Positions 11,694 to 64,000 of a stretch of DNA of 64,000 bases are shown in pieces. Every line of letters begins with the position of its first letter. Position 1 is the first letter of the stretch. The notes under the pieces are model-generated. The model saw only the letters and a program-made list of their open reading frames with translations, had not been told where the DNA came from and did no database searches. The stretch covers positions 773,624 through 837,623 of the forward strand of contig JAHJTE010000001.1 in NCBI GenBank assembly GCA_018830005.1, written 5' to 3'. Source of the stretch: Candidatus Omnitrophota bacterium. Its GTDB lineage: Bacteria; Omnitrophota; Gorgyraeia; JAHJTE01. The position numbers and the translations under genes are program-made.

Positions 11694-12370
11694 TGACGTA
11701 ACAACGCTAGCCTGCTCCGAAAAATATCGGAGAATAATTACCAACTATATGCAGGAAACTCCTCAAAAAGTGTTGATACTAGCTCGACTATTGAGTCGGA
11801 GCAGTAAAAATGCAACATTCAAGGGGAAAATCCGCAGGGAAGTCTGAAAGGAGAAAATATGACCCCTCAGAGACCAAACGTTGGAAATCGTGGCAGAGTT
11901 TCGAGATTGACTGATGAATGGATTTCGGGTTTTATCGATGGGGAAGGATGTTTCCATATCGGAATCAGTAAACATAATGATTTACGAATAGGATATCAAA
12001 TCCTCCCAGAGCTAACCGTAGTTCAACACAAGCGCGATTTAGATTTACTTCATGAATTGCGTTCAACGATGAATTGCGGGGTAGTGCGAAGAAACCACGG
12101 AGATCGATTCTGTTGGAGAGTAAGAAATTTGCAAAATCTCTCAGAAGTGATAATTCCGTTTTTTGATAAACATCCGTTAAGATCAAAAAAATATGTAGAT
12201 TTTTTGAAATTCAGAAAAGTGGTTATGAAGATGCAAAAAGGGGAACATCTTACAAAGGATGGTTTCCAGCAAATAGTAAAAATTGCATCAAAAATGAATC
12301 GCTGTCAATCAAAAATGAAGCCAGATTTAAGAGAGAGTCCACTCCAGGATGAAAATTCTGGGTAATAGTG
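11694..12370 (+). mobile_element. Group I-like intron in 23S at position ~1931 (between cctaaggt and agcgaaattcc) carrying a LAGLIDADG homing endonuclease gene
   Basis: A 677-nt insertion. The 5' exon ends in U and the intron ends in G (..taatagtg|agcgaaatt). It contains the 168-aa ORF listed below. L1931 is a recurrent group I intron site in bacterial and organellar LSU rRNA. Confidence 0.7.
11859..12365 (+). CDS. Single-motif LAGLIDADG homing endonuclease (I-CreI-like size, 168 aa) encoded inside the 23S intron
   Basis: Motif ..DEWISGFIDGEGCFHIGIS.. (a LAGLIDADG variant). The size of 168 aa is typical of homodimeric LAGLIDADG enzymes. The ORF lies wholly within the rRNA intron. Confidence 0.8.
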   Translation: MTPQRPNVGNRGRVSRLTDEWISGFIDGEGCFHIGISKHNDLRIGYQILPELTVVQHKRDLDLLHELRSTMNCGVVRRNHGDRFCWRVRNLQNLSEVIIPFFDKHPLRSKKYVDFLKFRKVVMKMQKGEHLTKDGFQQIVKIASKMNRCQSKMKPDLRESPLQDENSG

Positions 12371-12805
12371 AGCGAAATTCCTTGTGGGGTAAGTTCCCAC
12401 GCGCACGAATGGTGTACCAACATGGGCGCTGTCTCGACGAGAGACTCGGTGAAATTGTAGTGGCGGTGAAGATGCCGCCTACCCGCAGCAAGACGAAAAG
12501 ACCCCGGAACTTTTACTGTATCCTGGTATTGAATTTTGGTCCGATATGTGTAGTATAGGTGGGAGGCTTTGAGGCCCGGCCGCTAGGTTGGGCAGAGCCA
12601 TCAGTGAAATACCACCCTTATTTTCCTAAAATTCTAACCCCTTAGCTTTAATCAGCTAGGGAAACAGTGCCAGGTGGGCAGTTTAACTGGGGCGGTTTCC
12701 TCCTAAAATGTAACGGCGGAGCCCAAAGGTTCCCTCAAGGCGGTCGGCAATCGCCTGTTGAGTGTAAGGGCATAAGGGAGCTTAACTGCAATTCCGACAG
12801 GAAGC

Positions 12806-12840
<35 letters not shown>

Positions 12841-13422
12841 AGAAAGTGGGATTGCCATCGCTCAACGGATAAAAAGTACTCCGGGGATAACAGGCTTATC
12901 GCGCTCGAGAGTTCATATCGACAGCGCGGATTGGCACCTCGATGTCGGCTCATCCTATCCTGGGGCTGTATAAGGTCCCAAGGGTCCGGCTGTTCGCCGG
13001 TTAAAAGGGTACGCGAGCTGGGTTTAGAACGTCGCAAGACAGTTCGGTCTCTATCTGCTGTGGGCGTAAGGATACTTGAAGGGAAGCTCTCCCTAGTACG
13101 AGAGGACCGGGAGAGACGGACCGCTGGTGTACCAGTTGTCCTGCCAAGGGCAAGTGCTGGGTAGCCATGTTCGGAAAGGATAAGCGCTGAAGGCATCTAA
13201 GTGCCAAGCCCCTCTCAAGAATAGGTATCCCTTCCCGAGCAATCGGGATGAAGGCAGGCTGTAGACTACAGCCTTGATAGGCTCTGTGTGTAAGATCTGT
13301 AAGGATTTTAGCTGAAGAGTACTAATAGCCAATCGGCTTGACCACTCGGTATATTAGTTATAAGAAGCTGGTCTATTGTATTTAGTTTCACCCTGAATCT
13401 TAGTTGTTTTTAATTAAAAATT

Positions 13423-13538: not shown

Positions 13539-13550
13539 TTAGACTTTAAT

Positions 13551-13586
13551 AGCCCTTTGAAATTAATTCAGAGGGCTATTTTTTTT
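13551..13586 (+). terminator. Rho-independent terminator of the rrn operon
   Basis: Hairpin agccctttgaaattaattcagagggct followed by a T8 run. Confidence 0.7.
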
Positions 13587-13610: not shown

Positions 13611-13639
13611 TGATTGACTTTTATGAATAGATTTGTTAC
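13611..13639 (+). promoter_or_regulatory. Candidate promoter TTGACT-17-TACTAT immediately upstream of the pfkB-family gene
   Basis: ttgact..tttatgaatagatttgt..tactat; the ATG lies about 13 nt downstream of the -10. Confidence 0.35.
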
Positions 13640-13651
13640 TATATTAGCGCT

Positions 13652-14557: not shown

Positions 14558-15283
14558 ATGGAAATAAAGATTCGAACTACTAAGGATACAGCGATCTTAG
14601 ACCTCAGGGGGAATTTAGATGTCAATGCCTCTAATTTTATTGAGGCAATCGGCGAGGTCTTGCGGCAGGGTTTTAAAAAGGTTATTTGTAATTTTAAGGA
14701 TGTAGATATTATTGACTATATGGGACTTTCCGGATTAGCGATTGCTTACAAGAATATCAGTAACCACGATGCCGTCTTGAAGCTTTCTGATGTGCCGACC
14801 CATATAAAAAGCGTTTTTTCGCTTCTGTTATTGGATAATGTTTTAGAGATTTGCGGCACTGAAGCTGAGGCCCTGAAAAATTTTCAATATGATGATTCCT
14901 TTTCAAAGATAGAAAGTAAGAAACTGCGCAGAAGATTCAAACGCCTGCCAATAAATCTAAAAATAAAGTTTAGGCGCAAATTTAGCTCCTCTAAAGATTT
15001 TTTAGAAGGAAAGATATTCAACATTAGTGCCATAGGTGTTTTTATATACACAAAGAAGACTTTTGAGCTTAATGATATTTTGAGGTGTCGAATTCTACTG
15101 GGGGCAGAGAAAGAAACAATTGAATTTGATGCCAGAGTGGTTTGGCTTGCGGATAAAAGGCTGCAACCGCAGATTGCCCCTGGTATGGCAGTGGAATTTT
15201 ACAAGATGCCCAGTAGGATTCAGAAAAAGATTGTCGAATTCGTTGATAAAAATATTTCCCACGCAAGAGACATTGATACTTGA
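14558..15283 (+). CDS. Two-domain protein: N-terminal STAS (anti-sigma-factor-antagonist-like) domain fused to a C-terminal PilZ (c-di-GMP receptor) domain
   Basis: Residues 1-110 resemble the SpoIIAA/STAS fold (..ILDLRGNLDVNASNFIEAIGEVL..). The C-terminal part carries the PilZ motifs RRRFKR (RxxxR) and NISAIGVF (D/NxSxxG). Confidence 0.55.
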   Translation: MEIKIRTTKDTAILDLRGNLDVNASNFIEAIGEVLRQGFKKVICNFKDVDIIDYMGLSGLAIAYKNISNHDAVLKLSDVPTHIKSVFSLLLLDNVLEICGTEAEALKNFQYDDSFSKIESKKLRRRFKRLPINLKIKFRRKFSSSKDFLEGKIFNISAIGVFIYTKKTFELNDILRCRILLGAEKETIEFDARVVWLADKRLQPQIAPGMAVEFYKMPSRIQKKIVEFVDKNISHARDIDT

Positions 15284-17391
15284 GAATGAAGGAATTTTCT
15301 CGCTCCGTTAAATTCTTAAAGGGCGTTGGACCCTCCCGCGCAAAAATCTTAAAAAAATTATCCATTGAGACAATCGAGGATATTCTCTATTATTTTCCCC
15401 GCCGTTACGAAGATCGCAAAAACTTTATTAGTATAAGCCAGATAAAAGAGGATTCAAGTTATACCTTAAGAGCAAGGATTCTTTCCGTCGGAGTTCACAG
15501 TTCATTTAAAAGGCGCAATTTTAATATAGTGACTGTAAGCGTTGCTGATAATTCTGGCAAGATTGATGCTGTTTGGTTTAATCAGCGGTTCCTTGCGAAT
15601 ATGCTTAAGGTTGGCCAGGAGATTATTCTTTACGGTGAATTAAGCAGGTATAAAGATAGATTGCAGTTAAACTCACCCGAATTCGAGATAATTTCTGAAG
15701 ATGATATCTCACAAGATAATCTTAATGTCGGTCGCATAGTTCCAATCTATTCTCTGGCAAAGTTTTTAAGCCAGCGTCAGATGCGCCGGCTCGTAAAAAA
15801 TGCAATCGATGACTTTATTAGCCAAGTAAGGGATTTCCTGCCCTACGATGTTCGTAGCCGCGAAGGCCTTATTAATTTAGCAAAGGCCTTAATCAGCATT
15901 CACTTTCCACAGAATTTTAAACTCCTCGATGATGCCTATAGGAGATTGTGTTTTGACGATTGTTTTCTTTATCAGATACCGATTCTTATGCGAAAGGTTA
16001 AGGCGAGGCAAAGGAAGGGAATTTCACTAGAGACTCAAGATGGTTTTGTTGAACAAATCTTGCCTAAGTTGCCTTTTAAATTAACACCTTCTCAGTTCTA
16101 TGTCTTAATCCAGATAGAGAAAGATCTATCGAGTCCAATTCCAATGCAAAGATTATTGCAGGGCGATGTCGGCTCTGGGAAGACAATCGTGGCTTTTTTA
16201 TCAGCCTTGGTTGCGATAGAAGCAGGCGTTCAGGTTGCGCTGATGGTACCGACAGAGATTATCGCCAAACAGCATTTTCGCGTTTTAGCTAAAGTCGCAA
16301 AGGATGTTGGAAAAGATATAAGTTTTGGCCTGCTTACGGGTTCGCTAAGGCCTAAGGAAAAACAAGGCCTCTACGATAAAGTGAAGGATGGGGGTATTGA
16401 TTTATTGATTGGCACGCATGCCTTATTAAGCGAAAAGCTACGCTTTGAGAAATTGGGCTTGGTTATCATTGATGAACAGCACAAATTTGGCGTGGAGCAG
16501 AGAGCAGAGCTTTCTAAAAGGACCTTTCAGGAGAATGGAAAATACTGGCCACATAACTTAATTATGACAGCAACGCCTATACCTCGAACCCTAGCAATGA
16601 CTATCTATGGGGATTTAGAGGTATCTGTATTAAAAGAATTGCCACCAGCAAGACAGCCTATAATTACCAAAAAATTCTCACAAGGCGAAGTCGAGAAGGC
16701 ATATGGATTCTTAAAGGAAGTCCTAGCTTGTGGTGGCCAGGCGTATATAATTTATCCAATTATCGAAGAATCCCAAAGCATGGACTTGAAGGCAGCCAAG
16801 GCTATGTATGAGGCATTAAGAAAGGAAATTTTTAAGGATTTCCGCATTGGTCTAATTCATAGTCGTCTAAATCAGACAGAGCAGGGCCGAATTATGGAAG
16901 GCTTTTATGAAGGAAAAATAGATATATTAGTAGCAACAAGCATCTTAGAGGTCGGCGTAGATGTGCCGGATGCGTCATGCATTTTAATTGAAGAGGCAGA
17001 TCGCTTTGGGCTTTCGACTTTACATCAGTTGCGCGGTAGGGTTGGAAGGTCAGATAAGCAGTCGTATTGTCTTATAGTTAGTTCTTCTCGCACCCAAGAA
17101 GGCGCAGCGCGTATTAAGGCTATAACCAGCCTTTCTGATGGTTTTAAGCTTGCTGAGGCTGATTTGCGAATCAGGGGTCCAGGCCAATTTTTCGGTAGAG
17201 AGCAGCATGGTCTTAGTGATCTGAAATTTGTCGATCCTTTAGGGCAGATGCACATTTTGAAAAATGCCAGAGATGAAGCTATCCGCTTATTGGATAAAGA
17301 TCCCCAACTAAGTCAACGCCAGCATCACCTCATGCGCTTGGCCCTGAAAAGTAGATATCCTGATTTTGAGACGTTGATGATGACAGGTTAG
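15280..17391 (+). CDS. recG: ATP-dependent DNA helicase RecG
   Basis: The N-terminal wedge-domain region reads FLKGVGPSRAKILKKLSIETIEDILYYFPRRYEDR. Helicase motifs are GDVGSGKT, DEQHKFGV and TATPIPRTL. 703 aa. Confidence 0.9.
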   Translation: MRMKEFSRSVKFLKGVGPSRAKILKKLSIETIEDILYYFPRRYEDRKNFISISQIKEDSSYTLRARILSVGVHSSFKRRNFNIVTVSVADNSGKIDAVWFNQRFLANMLKVGQEIILYGELSRYKDRLQLNSPEFEIISEDDISQDNLNVGRIVPIYSLAKFLSQRQMRRLVKNAIDDFISQVRDFLPYDVRSREGLINLAKALISIHFPQNFKLLDDAYRRLCFDDCFLYQIPILMRKVKARQRKGISLETQDGFVEQILPKLPFKLTPSQFYVLIQIEKDLSSPIPMQRLLQGDVGSGKTIVAFLSALVAIEAGVQVALMVPTEIIAKQHFRVLAKVAKDVGKDISFGLLTGSLRPKEKQGLYDKVKDGGIDLLIGTHALLSEKLRFEKLGLVIIDEQHKFGVEQRAELSKRTFQENGKYWPHNLIMTATPIPRTLAMTIYGDLEVSVLKELPPARQPIITKKFSQGEVEKAYGFLKEVLACGGQAYIIYPIIEESQSMDLKAAKAMYEALRKEIFKDFRIGLIHSRLNQTEQGRIMEGFYEGKIDILVATSILEVGVDVPDASCILIEEADRFGLSTLHQLRGRVGRSDKQSYCLIVSSSRTQEGAARIKAITSLSDGFKLAEADLRIRGPGQFFGREQHGLSDLKFVDPLGQMHILKNARDEAIRLLDKDPQLSQRQHHLMRLALKSRYPDFETLMMTG

Positions 17392-58170: not shown

Positions 58171-59724
58171 ATGAGAGGTTTTAACAAGACACAATTAGGC
58201 ATTAATTTAAGCGCGGACGCGATTACACTTGTTGAATCCAGCGCTAGAAAGATTGTTAAATACTGCAGGCAGGAACTATCAGAATTTAGCGTTAACCTGA
58301 TGGAACTTTCCGAGGATGAGATAAAATTTTCTGCAATTTTACAAAAGATTTTAAGGGAGAATGAATTTACAGGCCGCGACGTTTACGTTGGTTTGCCTGC
58401 GCACGATATTATTGTAAGATCTTTTCAAATTCCACTTGTATCAAAAAGGGAAATAGACTCGACCATTAATTATGAAGCAAGAAAATATCTACCGTTTCGA
58501 ATAGAGGAATTAATATTTGATTTTCTCACGCGACGCAATAAAAGGAGTAAAGGCTTTAATGTAATATTTGCTGCAATTAAAAAGAAAGCCGTTGAGAGGT
58601 ATGTTAAGGTACTTAATCAGGTGGGATTTAATATCGTTTCATTGGAACCGGCAAGCTTGAGTTTTCTGCGTGCAGCCTTTGTTAAGACCAGAATCAATTT
58701 AAAAAAAATAGTACTAATTATAAATATTGATTCTCGCCTTTCAGAAGGAGATATCCTGATTTTAGATTCCAATATGCCTTGTTTTATTCGCGATTTAAAA
58801 TTATCTACCGCAGGCGAGGCCCCAGAGCAGGACAATCTCGAAAGCAAATTAAATAAACTAATAAATGAAATAAGAATTTCTATTGATTATTTCCGCCACC
58901 AGCAGCTTGCATTGCAAGATAATATTTCAGAGATTTTATTATTTACAGACGTCTCTGAAACAAATTCTTGGGCGCAGGCGATTGCTCAGGAGTTAGGTAT
59001 ATCAACCACTGCATTTTTAGCGGCCGAGACCTTAGGGATTGATTCAGCCCACTGCGATTTGCTTAAGGCAGCAGGGGCATCGTTTCGTGGTTTATGTAAT
59101 TTTCCAGTTGAGTTAAATCTCCTAAAGAAGAAAGAAGAGAAGTTGATAAGAAAAGAATCACAATTTGCTCAGATTTCAAAGTTATTTGTTTTTAAACCAC
59201 TATTTAAAAAATGTCTTATTTCTGGCGGAATATTCATAGCTTTAATAATTGCTATATATGTCCTTGGAAATTTTAAAATAAAAAAATTGGAAAAGCAATT
59301 AAATCTAACTCGAGCCCCTAAAGAACAGCTTGCATTTTTACCAAAGGCTATTGATTTTAGTCAGAAGGAGCTTGTTGCAATAAAGAAGTTGGTTCAAGAC
59401 CAGCTGGATCAAGTCGAGGCAACAATTGCATCAAGGGTTTATCTAACTGAAAAGATTGAGCGCCTTCAAGCCTTGTTGCCTGATGGCGTCTGGCTTGAAG
59501 GTCTAGACTTTCGTAAGGACAGAGGCAGCTTAGAAATGGTACTTGAGGGAGTTGCATATCTGCCTTCAGGTGAAAATGCATTAGTCGTAATCGATCAATT
59601 CTTAAGTAAATTACGCAATGATACGAAATTCAACAAAGGTTTTAAGGATATTGTACTTAGTTCGGTGAGGCAATCAGCCAGGGATGATTTTGTGATCCGG
59701 TTATTTCAGATTAAATGCCGTTAG
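58171..59724 (+). CDS. pilM: Fused PilM (actin-like ATPase fold) / PilN (TM plus periplasmic domain) type IV pilus assembly protein
   Basis: The N-terminal ~330 aa are PilM-like (..LGINLSADAITLVE.., ..DVYVGLPAHDIIVRSFQIP..). A TM helix (ISGGIFIALIIAIYVLG) follows at about aa 345, then a PilN-like coiled-coil/periplasmic region; 517 aa total. Confidence 0.6.
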   Translation: MRGFNKTQLGINLSADAITLVESSARKIVKYCRQELSEFSVNLMELSEDEIKFSAILQKILRENEFTGRDVYVGLPAHDIIVRSFQIPLVSKREIDSTINYEARKYLPFRIEELIFDFLTRRNKRSKGFNVIFAAIKKKAVERYVKVLNQVGFNIVSLEPASLSFLRAAFVKTRINLKKIVLIINIDSRLSEGDILILDSNMPCFIRDLKLSTAGEAPEQDNLESKLNKLINEIRISIDYFRHQQLALQDNISEILLFTDVSETNSWAQAIAQELGISTTAFLAAETLGIDSAHCDLLKAAGASFRGLCNFPVELNLLKKKEEKLIRKESQFAQISKLFVFKPLFKKCLISGGIFIALIIAIYVLGNFKIKKLEKQLNLTRAPKEQLAFLPKAIDFSQKELVAIKKLVQDQLDQVEATIASRVYLTEKIERLQALLPDGVWLEGLDFRKDRGSLEMVLEGVAYLPSGENALVVIDQFLSKLRNDTKFNKGFKDIVLSSVRQSARDDFVIRLFQIKCR

Positions 59725-60308
59725 TCAAAAATAAGATGAATCTAAAAGAGATAAAAATTGAGGATATCCTAAAAAAAACCGATAATCTTTTTATTATCGC
59801 TATAGTTTTAATCGGCTTAATTATCTCAGTAAATATTATTAAGAAGAATGCGAATGCTTATAAGCTCTTGCAGCAGAAGATTAAAACAGAGGAGAATATG
59901 AGTAATCTACTGACAGAGATTAACGATAGCGCTAAAGATTATAATTATTATCAGAAAAAAATACTATTCGATAAAGACAGCCGTCAGGTGGTTAATGCTA
60001 TTAATGAGTGGGCGAGTGCCTCTGGGGTAGAGATAATATCCTTAACGCCCCAGTTCGTAAAAGGTGATGAACGATTTTACTACGTTCCCGTTGATCTTGT
60101 AGCAAAGGCTGATTATTACGGATTAGGACTATTCTTAAGTAGAATTGAGGATTACGAAGGTTTCATTGAAATTAGAAATCTTAAGGTTTCTGCAGAGGGG
60201 GGGAGGATTTGGCAATCTATGCAATCGCAAAAGTTAAATATCAATCTTTCCTTGTATGCAGTCGCCCTGAAGGAATTAGATGTATCTGAAGCGTTTTCAA
60301 GATACTAG
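59715..60308 (+). CDS. pilO: PilO-like type IV pilus inner-membrane component
   Basis: N-terminal TM (LFIIAIVLIGLIISVNII), coiled coil, periplasmic domain; position between pilN and pilP. Confidence 0.55.
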   Translation: MPLVKNKMNLKEIKIEDILKKTDNLFIIAIVLIGLIISVNIIKKNANAYKLLQQKIKTEENMSNLLTEINDSAKDYNYYQKKILFDKDSRQVVNAINEWASASGVEIISLTPQFVKGDERFYYVPVDLVAKADYYGLGLFLSRIEDYEGFIEIRNLKVSAEGGRIWQSMQSQKLNINLSLYAVALKELDVSEAFSRY

Positions 60309-60321
60309 GATTGTACTAAAA

Positions 60322-60711
60322 ATGAAAAATACTTCTTTAATTGTCTTATTCATAACTATTTTTCTTCTGTCGTTGTACAGCCTAGGTCAGGCAGATGTTG
60401 TTTCTTCCAAGAAGGTTGCTTTTAAACCTTCTGGCTTACGCAGTCCATTTAGGTCTCTATTACCGGAAAAAAAGGCAGAAGAAGCAAAAGAAGTAATTAA
60501 GGCACCTGAAAGAGAGATACCTGTTTCTTCTCCAAAAGTCAAGATAAATGGAATAGTCTGGGGGGGATTATTTCCCCAGGCAATTATCAACGATGAGGTA
60601 ACAAGAGAAGGAGATGTCCTAGGGAAGCCAGAATCGATTACGGTTCTAGAAATTAAACCACGAGAGGTAGTGGTCTTATTTAAGGGAAAGATATTTAGTT
60701 TAAATCCTTGA
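60322..60711 (+). CDS. pilP: PilP-like lipoprotein/periplasmic component
   Basis: Signal/TM (MKNTSLIVLFITIFLLSLY), a Pro/Lys-rich linker, and a C-terminal beta domain (..INGIVWGG..AIINDEVTREGDVL..VLEIK..VVL..). Confidence 0.5.
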   Translation: MKNTSLIVLFITIFLLSLYSLGQADVVSSKKVAFKPSGLRSPFRSLLPEKKAEEAKEVIKAPEREIPVSSPKVKINGIVWGGLFPQAIINDEVTREGDVLGKPESITVLEIKPREVVVLFKGKIFSLNP

Positions 60712-60744
60712 TTTGAGCCTAAGTAAAAAAATAAGGGGGAATAA

Positions 60745-62259
60745 ATGAAAAACCTTAAGGGAAATTACAGGATAAAGATGCTATCCATTGGCATAGTTGT
60801 TTATTTGTCATTGTTTTTATTTGTTCCGAAGATTTATTCGGACGATTTGCCTGCCTGGCAGAATATTATCTTTGAAGATGAAACACAAAAGATTTCAATG
60901 GATTTCAAGGAGGCAAATCTCAAAGATGTATTGAAGATATTCTCTCAGCAGGCAGAGCTTAATTTTATTGCAAGTTCTGCTATAGAAGATCGTAAAATCA
61001 CATTATATTTAAACAATGTTCCTGTAGATGAGGCATTGGATAAGCTTCTTAGAGCTAATAATTTAGGTTACGAGAGGGATAGCTATTCTGATATTTTTAT
61101 AGTAAGGGACAAAGGCGAGTCTGCAATAGAGACTGAAACCCGCGTATTTTATTTAAAATATGCTCGAGTTCCAAGTTCCCGCTTGAGCCGAGAGATTGAA
61201 AGTGCTGCTTCAGATACAGAGGATGCCTCAGGAGGAACATCGGCAAGCAATGAGTTCAATATCGTTGAGGCAATAAGAAGACTGCTTTCTCTTCACGGCA
61301 ATATTGTTGAGGATGCGCGGACAAACAGTCTGATTGTTACAGATATTCATTCAAGATTTGCAGTGATTGAAAACACTATTGCAAAACTTGACATTTCAAT
61401 TCCTCAGGTAGCGATTGAAGTTGAGATGCTGGATATTAATCAGAATGTTTTAGATGAATTAGGTGTTAAATTTGCCAATGCTGATCTTTTGAGCTTTACA
61501 GGACCTTCTGCGGAGACTGACTTTCTCTTTAATAAAAATCGCGCTAATGCCCCAACTAGTCAAGAAACGCATTTTGGCATCTTGAGCGCAGAGCGTTTAA
61601 TCCTTACTCTAGAATTATTAAAGACACGCACTGATACTAAATTTCTGGCTAGGCCTCGCCTGTTAACACTTTCCAATGAGACATCTGAGATAAAGATAAC
61701 CGCTGATGAGGCTATTGGCGTTACTACTGAGACAGCGGCAGCGGGTGGTACTACAGGTTCAATAACCGAGACTGCCGAAAGAGCAGAAACCGGTATTTCA
61801 TTGCGTGTTACGCCACAGGTAAATATTACAAGTGGCGAAATTATAATGCTTTTAGAGACAAAGGTTATTGAGGCAAAAACAGGGTCAATAACCCTTGGCG
61901 GAAATATATTAAAGGACCCGGAGGTTCGTGGCACTAAGTCCATAGTAATGGTTAACGATGGAGAGACTGTTGTAATCGGCGGATTGATTCGTACTACTGA
62001 TTCCCAGACAAAGAAGAGGGTTCCTTTTTTGGGGGATATTCCTTTTCTGGGAGCACTTTTTCGTCATCGAGAAGGTGATACAAAGAATCGCGAGCTGATT
62101 ATCTTTATTACGCCACGCGTTGTCAAAAGCGGCGGCGTTCCATTAATACAATCTGCCGGACGGTTTATTAACAATGAGCGTGAACAAGGGCCATTGGGTT
62201 CTTCCTCTGATGAGGTTGATAAGGCTCTTACAGAGTTTGAAGAACGTAATGATCTATGA
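60745..62259 (+). CDS. pilQ: Type IV pilus secretin PilQ (short form, 504 aa)
   Basis: Secretin C-terminal signature ..VPFLGDIPFLGALFRHREGDTKNRELIIFITPRVV.., with N0/secretin_N-like modules upstream. Confidence 0.85.
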   Translation: MKNLKGNYRIKMLSIGIVVYLSLFLFVPKIYSDDLPAWQNIIFEDETQKISMDFKEANLKDVLKIFSQQAELNFIASSAIEDRKITLYLNNVPVDEALDKLLRANNLGYERDSYSDIFIVRDKGESAIETETRVFYLKYARVPSSRLSREIESAASDTEDASGGTSASNEFNIVEAIRRLLSLHGNIVEDARTNSLIVTDIHSRFAVIENTIAKLDISIPQVAIEVEMLDINQNVLDELGVKFANADLLSFTGPSAETDFLFNKNRANAPTSQETHFGILSAERLILTLELLKTRTDTKFLARPRLLTLSNETSEIKITADEAIGVTTETAAAGGTTGSITETAERAETGISLRVTPQVNITSGEIIMLLETKVIEAKTGSITLGGNILKDPEVRGTKSIVMVNDGETVVIGGLIRTTDSQTKKRVPFLGDIPFLGALFRHREGDTKNRELIIFITPRVVKSGGVPLIQSAGRFINNEREQGPLGSSSDEVDKALTEFEERNDL

Positions 62260-62280
62260 TGTAATTTGAGGTGTGAGTAA

Positions 62281-63996
62281 ATGGCCAAGCCCAGATTAAG
62301 ATTAGGTGAACTGCTTGTAAAGGAAGGAATCATTACTAAAGAGCAGTTAATGAAAGCAGTGGATGAGCAGCGAAAGTACGGCGGCTCAAGAATTGGCGAG
62401 GTTTTAGTGCAGTTGGGCATGGTTAGTGAGCAGGACTTGATTGCTACGCTGGGCAAACAGCTGGGGATTTCCTATGTTACTTCCGGTACTGGCTTGTTGC
62501 GGCCGGCAATTAACCAGGGACTGGAAAGATTGATTTCCAAGGATTTTGCCATTAAGAATGTAGTGCTGCCTCTATCTAAAAATCTTAATTCCTTGACCTG
62601 CGCAATTTTCGATCCATTAGATTTAGTTTTATTAGATAACCTGCGTAAGATTACGGGGTGTGAAATAAATTCAGTTATTGCTACAAAGCCAGATATACTA
62701 AAAGCAATCGAGGAGTTTTATGGAAAGGTAGATCTACTTAAAGAGGCAGTAAAGGAATCCTATATAGATACAGGTCAGATTGATGAGGCAGATGCTGATT
62801 TGAATGAAGATGAGTTGAGTCTGGACACATTGATTGCCAAGGCAGAAGAGGCCCCTGTAGTAAAGTTAGTTGATTTGATAATCCGTCAGGCAATCGATGA
62901 ACGCGCCTCAGACATTCATATTGAACCCTACAAAGAGAGGATAAGTTTAAGATATAGAATAGATGGAGCGCTTTATGACATTCCGCCTCCAGCTAAACAT
63001 CTGCACCTTCCTATTATTTCCAGGATAAAAATTTTGGCTAAGATGGACATTGCAGAGAAACGCCTGCCACAGGACGGGGCTTTCATGGTACGCTCTGAAA
63101 AGCGCGCCATTGATTTAAGGATTTCTACTATACCTACAGTTTATGGCGAGAAGGTGGTTATTAGGCTACTTGATCGCAGTCAGCTTCCCTTGGAGCTGAC
63201 ACAGCTGGGCCTTGAGCAAAAACAATTAGAAATATTTCGCCAGGCTATAAGTTCGCCTCATGGAATGATTTTCCTGACTGGTCCTACAGGTAGCGGAAAA
63301 ACAACGACTTTATATGCTGCCCTAAGTGAGATAAATAGCCCTCATAAAAATATTATTACTGTTGAGGATCCGGTTGAATACCGTCTTGACGGTATAAGTC
63401 AAGTCCAGATAAAGCCCGAAATCGGTCTCACATTTGCTACTGCCCTACGTTCATTTTTACGTCAGGATCCTGATATAATGATGGTGGGAGAAGTAAGGGA
63501 TTTGGAGACTGGACGTATCTGTGTGCGTTCGGCATTGACAGGCCATCTTGTCCTAAGCACCCTGCATACAAACGATGCCCCTTCAGCAATTACGAGATTG
63601 GTTGATATCGGCGTAGAACCCTATCTTTTAATGCCAGCCTTGTTATTAGTTGTGGCCCAGAGGTTAGTGCGCAAATTATGCCCTGACTGCAAAGAGGCAT
63701 ATGAGCCGTCCGGGGAGAAGCTGGGAAATACTAAACTCAATGCTGATCTTATCTATAGGGCTAAGGGCTGCGAGAAATGTAATCAGATTGGCTATCGTGG
63801 CAGGGTTGGCGTCTATGAAGTTATGAGTATTAACGAAGAGATTTCTCATTTTGCCTTGGAAGGAGTAGAAACTGCAAAGATTAGGGAGGCATCAATAGCT
63901 AACGGCATGAATACGTTATGGGAAAATGGCCTGAAAAAAGTTGAAAAAGGCATTACAAGTCTGGAAGAGATAATGGCAGTGGTAGTTGAAGGATAA
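62281..63996 (+). CDS. pilB: Type IV pilus assembly ATPase PilB (GspE family) with N-terminal tandem MshEN-type motifs
   Basis: Walker A GPTGSGKTTT, Asp and His boxes, tetracysteine CPDC..CEKC. The N-terminal segments RLGELLVKEGIITKEQLMKAVDEQ and RIGEVLVQLGMVSEQDLIATLGKQ fit the 24-aa MshEN c-di-GMP-binding motif. Confidence 0.85.
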   Translation: MAKPRLRLGELLVKEGIITKEQLMKAVDEQRKYGGSRIGEVLVQLGMVSEQDLIATLGKQLGISYVTSGTGLLRPAINQGLERLISKDFAIKNVVLPLSKNLNSLTCAIFDPLDLVLLDNLRKITGCEINSVIATKPDILKAIEEFYGKVDLLKEAVKESYIDTGQIDEADADLNEDELSLDTLIAKAEEAPVVKLVDLIIRQAIDERASDIHIEPYKERISLRYRIDGALYDIPPPAKHLHLPIISRIKILAKMDIAEKRLPQDGAFMVRSEKRAIDLRISTIPTVYGEKVVIRLLDRSQLPLELTQLGLEQKQLEIFRQAISSPHGMIFLTGPTGSGKTTTLYAALSEINSPHKNIITVEDPVEYRLDGISQVQIKPEIGLTFATALRSFLRQDPDIMMVGEVRDLETGRICVRSALTGHLVLSTLHTNDAPSAITRLVDIGVEPYLLMPALLLVVAQRLVRKLCPDCKEAYEPSGEKLGNTKLNADLIYRAKGCEKCNQIGYRGRVGVYEVMSINEEISHFALEGVETAKIREASIANGMNTLWENGLKKVEKGITSLEEIMAVVVEG

Positions 63997-64000
63997 ACAA

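Follow-up and report, generated by a model that had tools for sequence, protein, structure and literature searches.

A STAS-PilZ fusion protein family of Omnitrophota and the means by which its switch may be driven

PilZ receptors for cyclic di-GMP (c-di-GMP) and STAS switches are among the commonest signalling modules of bacteria. A protein that joins the two directly is encoded in a stretch of 64,000 nucleotides from a Candidatus Omnitrophota bacterium (assembly GCA_018830005.1, contig JAHJTE010000001.1, positions 773,624 to 837,623 of the forward strand), which is referred to here as the window. The question raised by this STAS-PilZ gene is what drives its switch: phosphorylation of a serine, as in the SpoIIAA-type antagonists, or the ligand of the PilZ half. 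The original prediction, made from the letters of the window, had coupled c-di-GMP sensing to a partner-switching module of anti-sigma and anti-anti-sigma factors. The reading favoured here, to which we give about even weight for and against, is that the protein is a soluble receptor for c-di-GMP with two domains, that it acts through a protein-protein interaction of its STAS domain, and that the switch is operated by c-di-GMP and not by serine phosphorylation.

Architecture and family of the protein

The gene and the elements of its product are as follows.

14558..15283, + strand: STAS-PilZ gene, ATG start, 241 amino acids (aa) and a stop codon (list of open reading frames, ORFs)
14564..14872, + strand: STAS domain of the SpoIIAA/RsbV type, aa 3-105 (Pfam PF01740, family profile against the PDB, Foldseek)
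14714..14731, + strand: family signature DYxG[LI]S, D53-Y54-M55-G56-L57-S58, at the start of helix alpha2 (HMMER alignments to 1th8_B and 1tid_B)
14861..14926, + strand: predicted helix aa 102-120 with a short connector to aa 123, leading from the STAS core to the PilZ motif (AlphaFold secondary structure)
14927..15247, + strand: PilZ domain, a six-stranded barrel and a C-terminal helix, aa 124-230 (Pfam PF07238, model, Foldseek)
14927..14944, + strand: RRxxxR c-di-GMP-binding motif of PilZ, R124-R125-R126-F127-K128-R129 (read from the sequence)
15020..15037, + strand: (D/N)xSxxG c-di-GMP-binding motif of PilZ, N155-I-S157-A-I-G160 (read from the sequence)

Both domains had been predicted, and both are borne out by Pfam, with scores about twice the respective gathering cut-offs. 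PF01740 matches aa 3-105 with 44.2 bits (E 1.8e-11, cut-off 22.6), and this half has a SpoIIAA/RsbV-like fold in the structural model. PF07238 matches aa 124-230 with 48.1 bits (E 1.5e-12, cut-off 22.5), and the strings RRRFKR and NISAIG, from which the PilZ domain had been recognized, lie at aa 124-129 and 155-160. The start Met is the same in homologues. The AlphaFold2 model, computed from a 40-sequence alignment, has a mean predicted local distance difference test score (pLDDT) of 83 and a predicted template modelling score (pTM) of 0.50. It consists of two confident domains; confidence falls after about aa 113, within the linker, and residues 114-127, which include part of the linker, have a pLDDT below 50. 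Because of the low pTM and the poorly defined linker, the model fixes no orientation of STAS relative to PilZ in the ligand-free protein. The linker helix is itself conserved (E102, A105 and F109 in at least 90% of the 40 sequences), and the distance between Y54 and RxxxR is mostly 66-71 residues among the unique family sequences.

Database entry P0001, 'PilZ domain-containing protein [Candidatus Omnitrophica bacterium]', has the identical sequence. When 5.8 billion proteins are searched, the protein falls in a family of 92 clusters at 90% identity, whose members are 225-258 aa long, are 37-100% identical to the query and have both domains without exception. That 92 homologous clusters keep both domains over such a range of identity confirms that the architecture is real and that it occurs far beyond chance. 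The clusters with organism names are from Omnitrophota. When one genome per GTDB species is scanned, relatives are found in at least 104 genomes, a lower bound since the scan used a single peptide pattern. Among 80 loci that were kept, 67 are labelled Omnitrophota or Omnitrophica, 10 'uncultured Planctomycetales/Planctomycetia' and one Margulisiibacteriota, and two belong to bacteria without further label. In several of the loci labelled other than Omnitrophota, the genes follow each other in the order seen in Omnitrophota loci.

When the profile is run exhaustively against 1.84 billion representatives, the 34 matches below 1e-30 are the family and its fragments. They are followed by a second tier of proteins of 230-245 aa, in which Pfam confirms both STAS and PilZ. 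The architecture is thus also found outside the Omnitrophota family, which is by far the largest group. Four of the distant STAS-PilZ proteins (P0160, P0166, P0205 and P0213) keep the canonical serine in the form DS[SQE]G. Other distant proteins have SSSG, and the Ser-bearing set also includes P0123, P0134, P0136, P0139, P0149, P0180 and P0191. All of these distant proteins are rare and known from metagenomes only. Judged by sequence, the fusion exists in a phosphorylatable (Ser) form and in a Tyr form. Candidates for the reverse order, PilZ-STAS, were also tried and rejected: P0164 and P0173 are STAS-STAS tandems, and P0196 and P0227 are PilZ-PilZ tandems. The nearest STAS match outside the family, P0124 (also P0259-P0261; 562-608 aa, metagenomic), has three STAS domains and an RsbW-like HATPase_c_2 domain (PF13581), a type that joins antagonists and kinase in one chain.

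The arrangement had been called non-textbook, and the literature searched indeed holds neither a description of a direct STAS-PilZ fusion nor a published study of one. A review of PilZ architectures lists fusions to REC, GGDEF, EAL, HD-GYP, MCP, CheC, HlyD and PilZN, but not to STAS (10.1101/814665). Each part by itself is textbook, unlike their combination; the sequences are already in databases under automatic names ('PilZ domain-containing protein', 'anti-sigma factor antagonist', 'anti-sigma B factor antagonist' and 'STAS domain-containing protein'). What appears to be new is their recognition as a family that is conserved across many genomes of Omnitrophota and has Tyr in place of Ser as the switch residue.

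The switch position and the ligand site

In Foldseek comparisons, the STAS half superposes on SpoIIAA (1th8_B, target template modelling (TM) score 0.86), TM1442 (0.89) and RsbV (0.88-0.89). The best relatives of the family profile in the PDB are SpoIIAA (E 1e-15), TM1442, RsbV and RsfB, over a range of 1e-15 to 1e-7. A STAS domain of the SulP type (3t6o) gives only a weak profile match (E 0.005), and MlaB has no entry among the listed matches of either the profile search or Foldseek. As in the SpoIIAA-type antagonists, conservation extends to the G-x-[IL]-D loop and to two residues around the switch position, an Asp that precedes it and a Gly at +2.

The switch residue itself is different. 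In the HMMER alignments, D-S-S-G-L of SpoIIAA is aligned with D53-Y54-M55-G56-L57, which places Y54 (14717-14719) at the position of the phospho-serine. Where SpoIIAA has Ser58, at the N-terminus of helix alpha2, the STAS-PilZ protein thus has neither Ser nor Thr; Tyr54 is the first residue of that helix in the model. The phosphorylatable serine that was looked for in following up the original prediction is therefore absent from the canonical position. The 40-sequence alignment shows no variation at Y54, G56 or S58, and of 168 unique family sequences at least 163 have Tyr at the phospho-serine position. When the 150 nearest representatives are considered, with their 151 STAS domains, this position is Ser in 98 and Tyr in 29, and all 29 Tyr cases belong to the family or its fragments except P0219 (239 aa). 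The nearest STAS domains outside the family have Ser at the site in 98 of 122 cases. Four residues further on, Ser is present in 26 of 29 family sequences, whereas Gly is present in 81 of the 122 other STAS domains; in these sequences the change from Gly to Ser at +4 is coupled with the change from Ser to Tyr. Helix alpha2 (DYxGLSxLAIAYKNxxNH) and H82 are strongly conserved, to a degree unusual for helix alpha2, and would fit a conserved interaction surface.

These features bear on the possibility that the protein is a canonical anti-anti-sigma factor, which would act in a phosphorylation cascade with an RsbW-type kinase/anti-sigma factor and a PP2C phosphatase, PilZ serving as a second input for c-di-GMP. 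The STAS half is closest to genuine antagonists both by Foldseek and by the family profile, some sources name members 'anti-sigma B factor antagonist', there is an invariant serine (Ser58) at a distance of one turn from the canonical site, and the distant, rarer proteins P0160, P0166, P0205 and P0213 keep the DS[SQE]G serine. However, the phospho-site is an invariant Tyr, the antagonist names are automatic, and the scores fall short of both NCBIfam cut-offs for anti-sigma antagonists (39.1 against 53.45 bits for TIGR00377, and 34.4 against 114.75 for TIGR02886). The genes of such a cascade were also sought. Queries with RsbW, SpoIIAB, SigB and three HATPase_c_2 sequences find no match by phmmer or jackhmmer in 1.16 Mb, made up of 83 loci and the window (PP2C was not queried). 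The Pfam-annotated neighbours in related loci include no RsbW/SpoIIAB-like, SigB-like or PP2C phosphatase gene (PP2C was not searched by sequence), and no stressosome or RsbS/RsbT-like neighbours are seen among them. None of the Pfam-annotated genes of the 64-kb window encodes a GGDEF/EAL protein, an RsbW-type kinase, a PP2C phosphatase or a sigma factor. Canonical partner switching is, in our judgement, distinctly unlikely. The phosphorylation-driven module of the original prediction is given up with it: the core idea of c-di-GMP coupled to a STAS switch is kept and is partly supported, but the cascade of kinase, phosphatase and sigma factor is dropped, because none of its three defining features (a serine at the site, an antagonist-level profile score, a kinase or SigB-like gene in the 1.16 Mb) was found.

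In the PilZ half, both c-di-GMP-binding motifs are intact. In the 40 sequences, which reach down to 37% identity, L123, R124, R125, R126, F127, R129 and G160 never vary, and N155 and S157 are kept in at least 90%. Over the 168 unique sequences, [DN]xSxxG is present in 160 and NxGxxG in seven. In the PilZ half of the model, six strands (aa 134-214) are followed by a helix (219-236), and this half superposes on the c-di-GMP-bound PilZ domain of Alg44 (4rt0/4xrn, target TM score 0.75); other PilZ matches in Foldseek are BcsA, YcgR, MotI and MrkH. NCBIfam adds a sub-threshold match to the PilZ paralogue family TIGR02266. By sequence, the best match of the family profile on the PilZ side of the PDB is the type IV fimbriae assembly protein PilZ of Xanthomonas (3cnr, 7lkq; E ~3e-6), but the 3cnr match is limited to the barrel core, and Alg44 ranks higher by structure.

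The RRxxxR motif sits at the end of the linker, after the helix (aa 102-120) that leaves STAS, and is unstructured in the ligand-free model. This is commonly seen in PilZ proteins in which the N-terminal arm becomes ordered only upon ligand binding. In PilZ proteins c-di-GMP binds at inter-domain linkers, and PilZ domains of fusion proteins invariably retain binding (Galperin and Chou, 10.1101/814665). The near-invariance of the motifs argues for retained c-di-GMP binding here also, and the domain looks functional as a c-di-GMP receptor. One could argue instead that the domain has ceased to sense c-di-GMP and acts purely as a scaffold or as a module for protein binding. There are members of the PilZ family that do not bind the ligand (discussed in 10.1101/814665), and the 64-kb window has no diguanylate cyclase. 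However, non-binders typically lose the motifs, both of which are essentially invariant over the 168 sequences, and Omnitrophota are reported to have GGDEF domains and a large number of pilZ genes (10.1101/2023.11.21.568195). We give a non-sensing PilZ domain hardly any credence.

The proposed switch and its relatives

The invariant Tyr at the phospho-serine position suggests that c-di-GMP rather than phosphorylation probably flips the switch. In the mechanism that we propose, c-di-GMP would occupy a site formed by the RRxxxR arm and the barrel, the one used in other PilZ proteins. The linker would become ordered upon binding, STAS would be either re-oriented or docked against PilZ, and the alpha2 face of STAS (the region of Y54, S58 and H82) would thereby be exposed or hidden. 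A partner protein might then be captured or released at this face, which is where SpoIIAA-type proteins carry their phospho-serine. Some considerations weigh against this proposal. The invariant Ser58 of the STAS-PilZ protein is one helical turn after Tyr54 and on the same face of the helix, and phosphorylation could still be at Ser58 or at Tyr54 itself. We infer the binding of c-di-GMP from the motifs alone. The search for kinase and sigma genes covered about 8 kb on each side of the gene in the related loci, besides the window, and each of its queries was a single sequence.

Several known systems share parts of the proposed mechanism. The single-domain antagonists of TIGR00377 (SpoIIAA, RsbV, TM1442 and RsfB) have the same STAS fold, are the best profile relatives and share the loop and the Asp and Gly around the switch residue. 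The STAS-PilZ protein differs from them in having Tyr for the switch Ser, Ser for Gly at +4 and an added C-terminal PilZ domain, in scoring below the TIGR00377 cut-off, and in that no adjacent kinase or sigma gene is found in the loci searched. The two-domain PilZ receptors YcgR, MotI/DgrA, PlzD/VCA0042 and MrkH likewise have PilZ at the C-terminus and RRxxxR in the linker to an N-terminal domain. In these proteins the N-terminal domain is a degenerate PilZ-like (PilZN) barrel, whereas here it is STAS, which makes the flagellar motor or DNA unlikely as a partner. Fusions of a sensor to STAS that are regulated without phosphorylation are established in YtvA (LOV-STAS) and RsbR (globin-STAS), and RsfA is redox-regulated; in all of these, sensing controls STAS without a Ser phospho-switch, and the logic is the same as that proposed here. 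Unlike in YtvA and RsbR, the sensor of the STAS-PilZ protein is PilZ with its ligand c-di-GMP, and it is C-terminal to STAS.

There are also circuits in which c-di-GMP and anti-sigma or antagonist proteins occur together. In Pseudomonas, the antagonist HsbA reportedly acts on HsbD directly. HsbA is a STAS protein and HsbD a diguanylate cyclase, and the two work together (PMC5085249). In Streptomyces, c-di-GMP glues RsiG, an anti-sigma factor, to sigma(WhiG) (PMC13232838). The difference from HsbA-HsbD, and from RsiG, which is an unrelated anti-sigma factor, is that the STAS-PilZ protein itself carries the c-di-GMP receptor domain.

If c-di-GMP does take over the role of serine phosphorylation, the family would represent a new way to drive a partner-switch and a first point of access to the functions under c-di-GMP control in Omnitrophota, a phylum that is uncultured, has many pilZ genes and consists of very small cells that probably depend on hosts. 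Small and soluble, the protein offers clear mutational targets (R125, R129, N155, S157, Y54 and S58), which makes the hypothesis cheap to address in vitro without culturing the organism.

Neighbouring genes and candidate partners

In the window, the gene lies between pfkB and recG, in the order pfkB, STAS-PilZ, recG, followed by rsmD, coaD, yceD, rpmF, plsX and fab genes. Ahead of this group two signals are found.

13548-13580: terminator-like hairpin after the 5S ribosomal RNA (rRNA) gene and before the promoter-like site
13614..13642, + strand: promoter-like site TTGACT-17-TACTAT, TG-extended, ahead of pfkB (consensus scan only)

The gaps are 9 nucleotides between pfkB and STAS-PilZ and 2 nucleotides between STAS-PilZ and recG, if recG starts at the ATG at 15286. 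A transcription unit of pfkB, STAS-PilZ, recG and the following genes would thus start at the promoter-like site, and the STAS-PilZ gene would be co-transcribed with housekeeping genes.

The wider neighbourhood was analysed by calling and clustering ORFs over about 8 kb on either side of the gene in 82 related loci. No neighbour or operon partner is common to the whole family in these loci, and the partner of the STAS-PilZ protein is not encoded next to its gene. Candidates for it are an unlinked anti-sigma-like protein, a component of lipid A/lipopolysaccharide (LPS)-core biogenesis or a type IV pilus ATPase, none of them strongly supported. In about 40 of the 82 loci the gene is part of a same-strand block, DprA-TopA-XerC-WaaA-[STAS-PilZ]-(HAD/UPF0016/OsmC)-LpxK-LpxL-like-GT1/heptosyltransferase (for example in L031, L066, L088, L019, L035 and L043, with the match at about 8001-8720). 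The identities of the block genes were read from cluster sequences and, for L003, from Pfam. Another clade has the arrangement YqeY...M23 peptidase-[STAS-PilZ]-pentapeptide channel-radical SAM. The clade of the window (L001, L015) has neither the waaA-lpxK block nor the YqeY/M23 arrangement.

The block raises the possibility of an envelope adaptor, in which STAS would bind a component of lipid A/LPS-core synthesis or transport, as MlaB binds the ABC ATPase MlaF, and c-di-GMP would tune outer-membrane biogenesis. MlaB, the STAS subunit of the MlaFEDB lipid transporter, is an example of a STAS protein acting on an envelope-lipid machine and is not known to use a phospho-switch; the parallel was prompted by the waaA-lpxK synteny. 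The recurrence of the waaA-lpxK-lpxL block speaks for such a role, and so does the presence of WaaA at most two genes upstream in 23 loci, between whose STAS-PilZ proteins identity goes down to 39%. However, the block also holds the unrelated topA, xerC and dprA, and may be inherited synteny rather than a functional operon. Beside the STAS-PilZ gene, insertions of unrelated genes (greA, osmC, a deaminase, HAD) are frequent, and other clades, including that of the window with its pfkB / STAS-PilZ / recG order, lack the waaA-lpxK link. The STAS half matches SpoIIAA and RsbV, with no MlaB among its listed matches, and no ABC ATPase is seen in the recurrent block or found as a neighbour. An envelope adaptor of this kind is unlikely.

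A bolder form of the c-di-GMP-switched reading would combine several of these points. In Omnitrophota, an ancestral phospho-serine switch would have been replaced by a built-in one, in which c-di-GMP bound by PilZ would take the part of phosphorylation in SpoIIAA/RsbV, by docking on the Tyr54/Ser58 face of STAS or by uncovering it. No earlier switch of the anti-sigma-antagonist type would then be gated by a second messenger, and the protein would be a core c-di-GMP effector of a phylum of ultra-small, host-associated bacteria, possibly controlling lipid A/LPS-core biogenesis, as the waaA-lpxK synteny would suggest, or a sigma factor. We offer this form tentatively and regard it as doubtful.

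The window contains a second candidate for c-di-GMP control, a type IV pilus cluster at its far end.

58171..64000: type IV pilus cluster with PilM_2, PilO, secretin and PilB; PilC and pilin are just past the window end
62281..63996: PilB, with T2SSE and MshEN domains (Pfam)

An ExbB/ExbD pair and an 834-aa TPR protein are encoded directly upstream of the cluster. The MshEN motif, RLGxx(L/V/I)(L/V/I)xxG(L/V/I)(L/V/I)xxxxLxxxLxxQ, occurs as two tandem copies (PMC5013675). The N-terminus of PilB has two near-perfect 24-residue c-di-GMP motifs of this kind, at aa 7-30 (RLGELLVKEGIITKEQLMKAVDEQ) and aa 37-60 (RIGEVLVQLGMVSEQDLIATLGKQ); the deviations are three conservative changes (L to V, L to I and [LVI] to M) and a spacer of 6 residues instead of 5. 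The original prediction had joined this PilB with the STAS-PilZ protein in the control of surface behaviour. The MshEN motifs are real, but the PilB gene is 47 kb from the STAS-PilZ gene, and nothing ties the two proteins beyond their shared ligand.

A related proposal is that the PilZ half acts on PilB, as PilZ of Xanthomonas or Pseudomonas does, with STAS as a second contact, so that c-di-GMP would control attachment to surfaces or to a host. The Xanthomonas protein is the best PilZ-side sequence match, as mentioned above, and the pilus cluster is complete (pilM, pilO, secretin, pilB with both MshEN motifs, pilC and pilin). However, the cluster is 43-47 kb away, and no pilus gene recurs among the neighbours in the 82 loci. 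The similarity to 3cnr is confined to the barrel core, with Alg44 ahead by structure, and Xanthomonas PilZ is without the c-di-GMP motifs, both of which the STAS-PilZ family keeps. We consider a pilus regulator very improbable.

Other PilZ proteins are frequent near the gene in Omnitrophota loci. They include a fusion of Peptidase_M48 to PilZ and stand-alone PilZ proteins of about 125 aa, and fit the abundance of pilZ genes reported for the phylum. The further PilZ genes near STAS-PilZ are the following.

3182..4675 of L006: PilZ gene
1955..2332 of L004: PilZ gene
Cluster c8: PilZ genes in L070, L081, L069, L079, L073 and L085

The rRNA operon upstream of pfkB has features of its own. The spacer from the 16S rRNA end to tRNA-Ile (8147..8928) is unusually long, about 780 nucleotides, with no Rfam match or listed ORF of at least 100 aa inside. 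The 23S rRNA gene (9436..13345) is about 3910 nucleotides long, against 2925 for the model, and contains a group I intron (RF00028, 60.7 bits, signal at 11449..11665). A LAGLIDADG homing-endonuclease ORF lies in this intron (11859..12365, + strand, 168 aa; PF00961, 95.5 bits). Directly upstream of the operon, an ORF of 1074 aa (3165..6389, + strand) combines Peptidase_C25, which is gingipain-like, with Flg_new_2.

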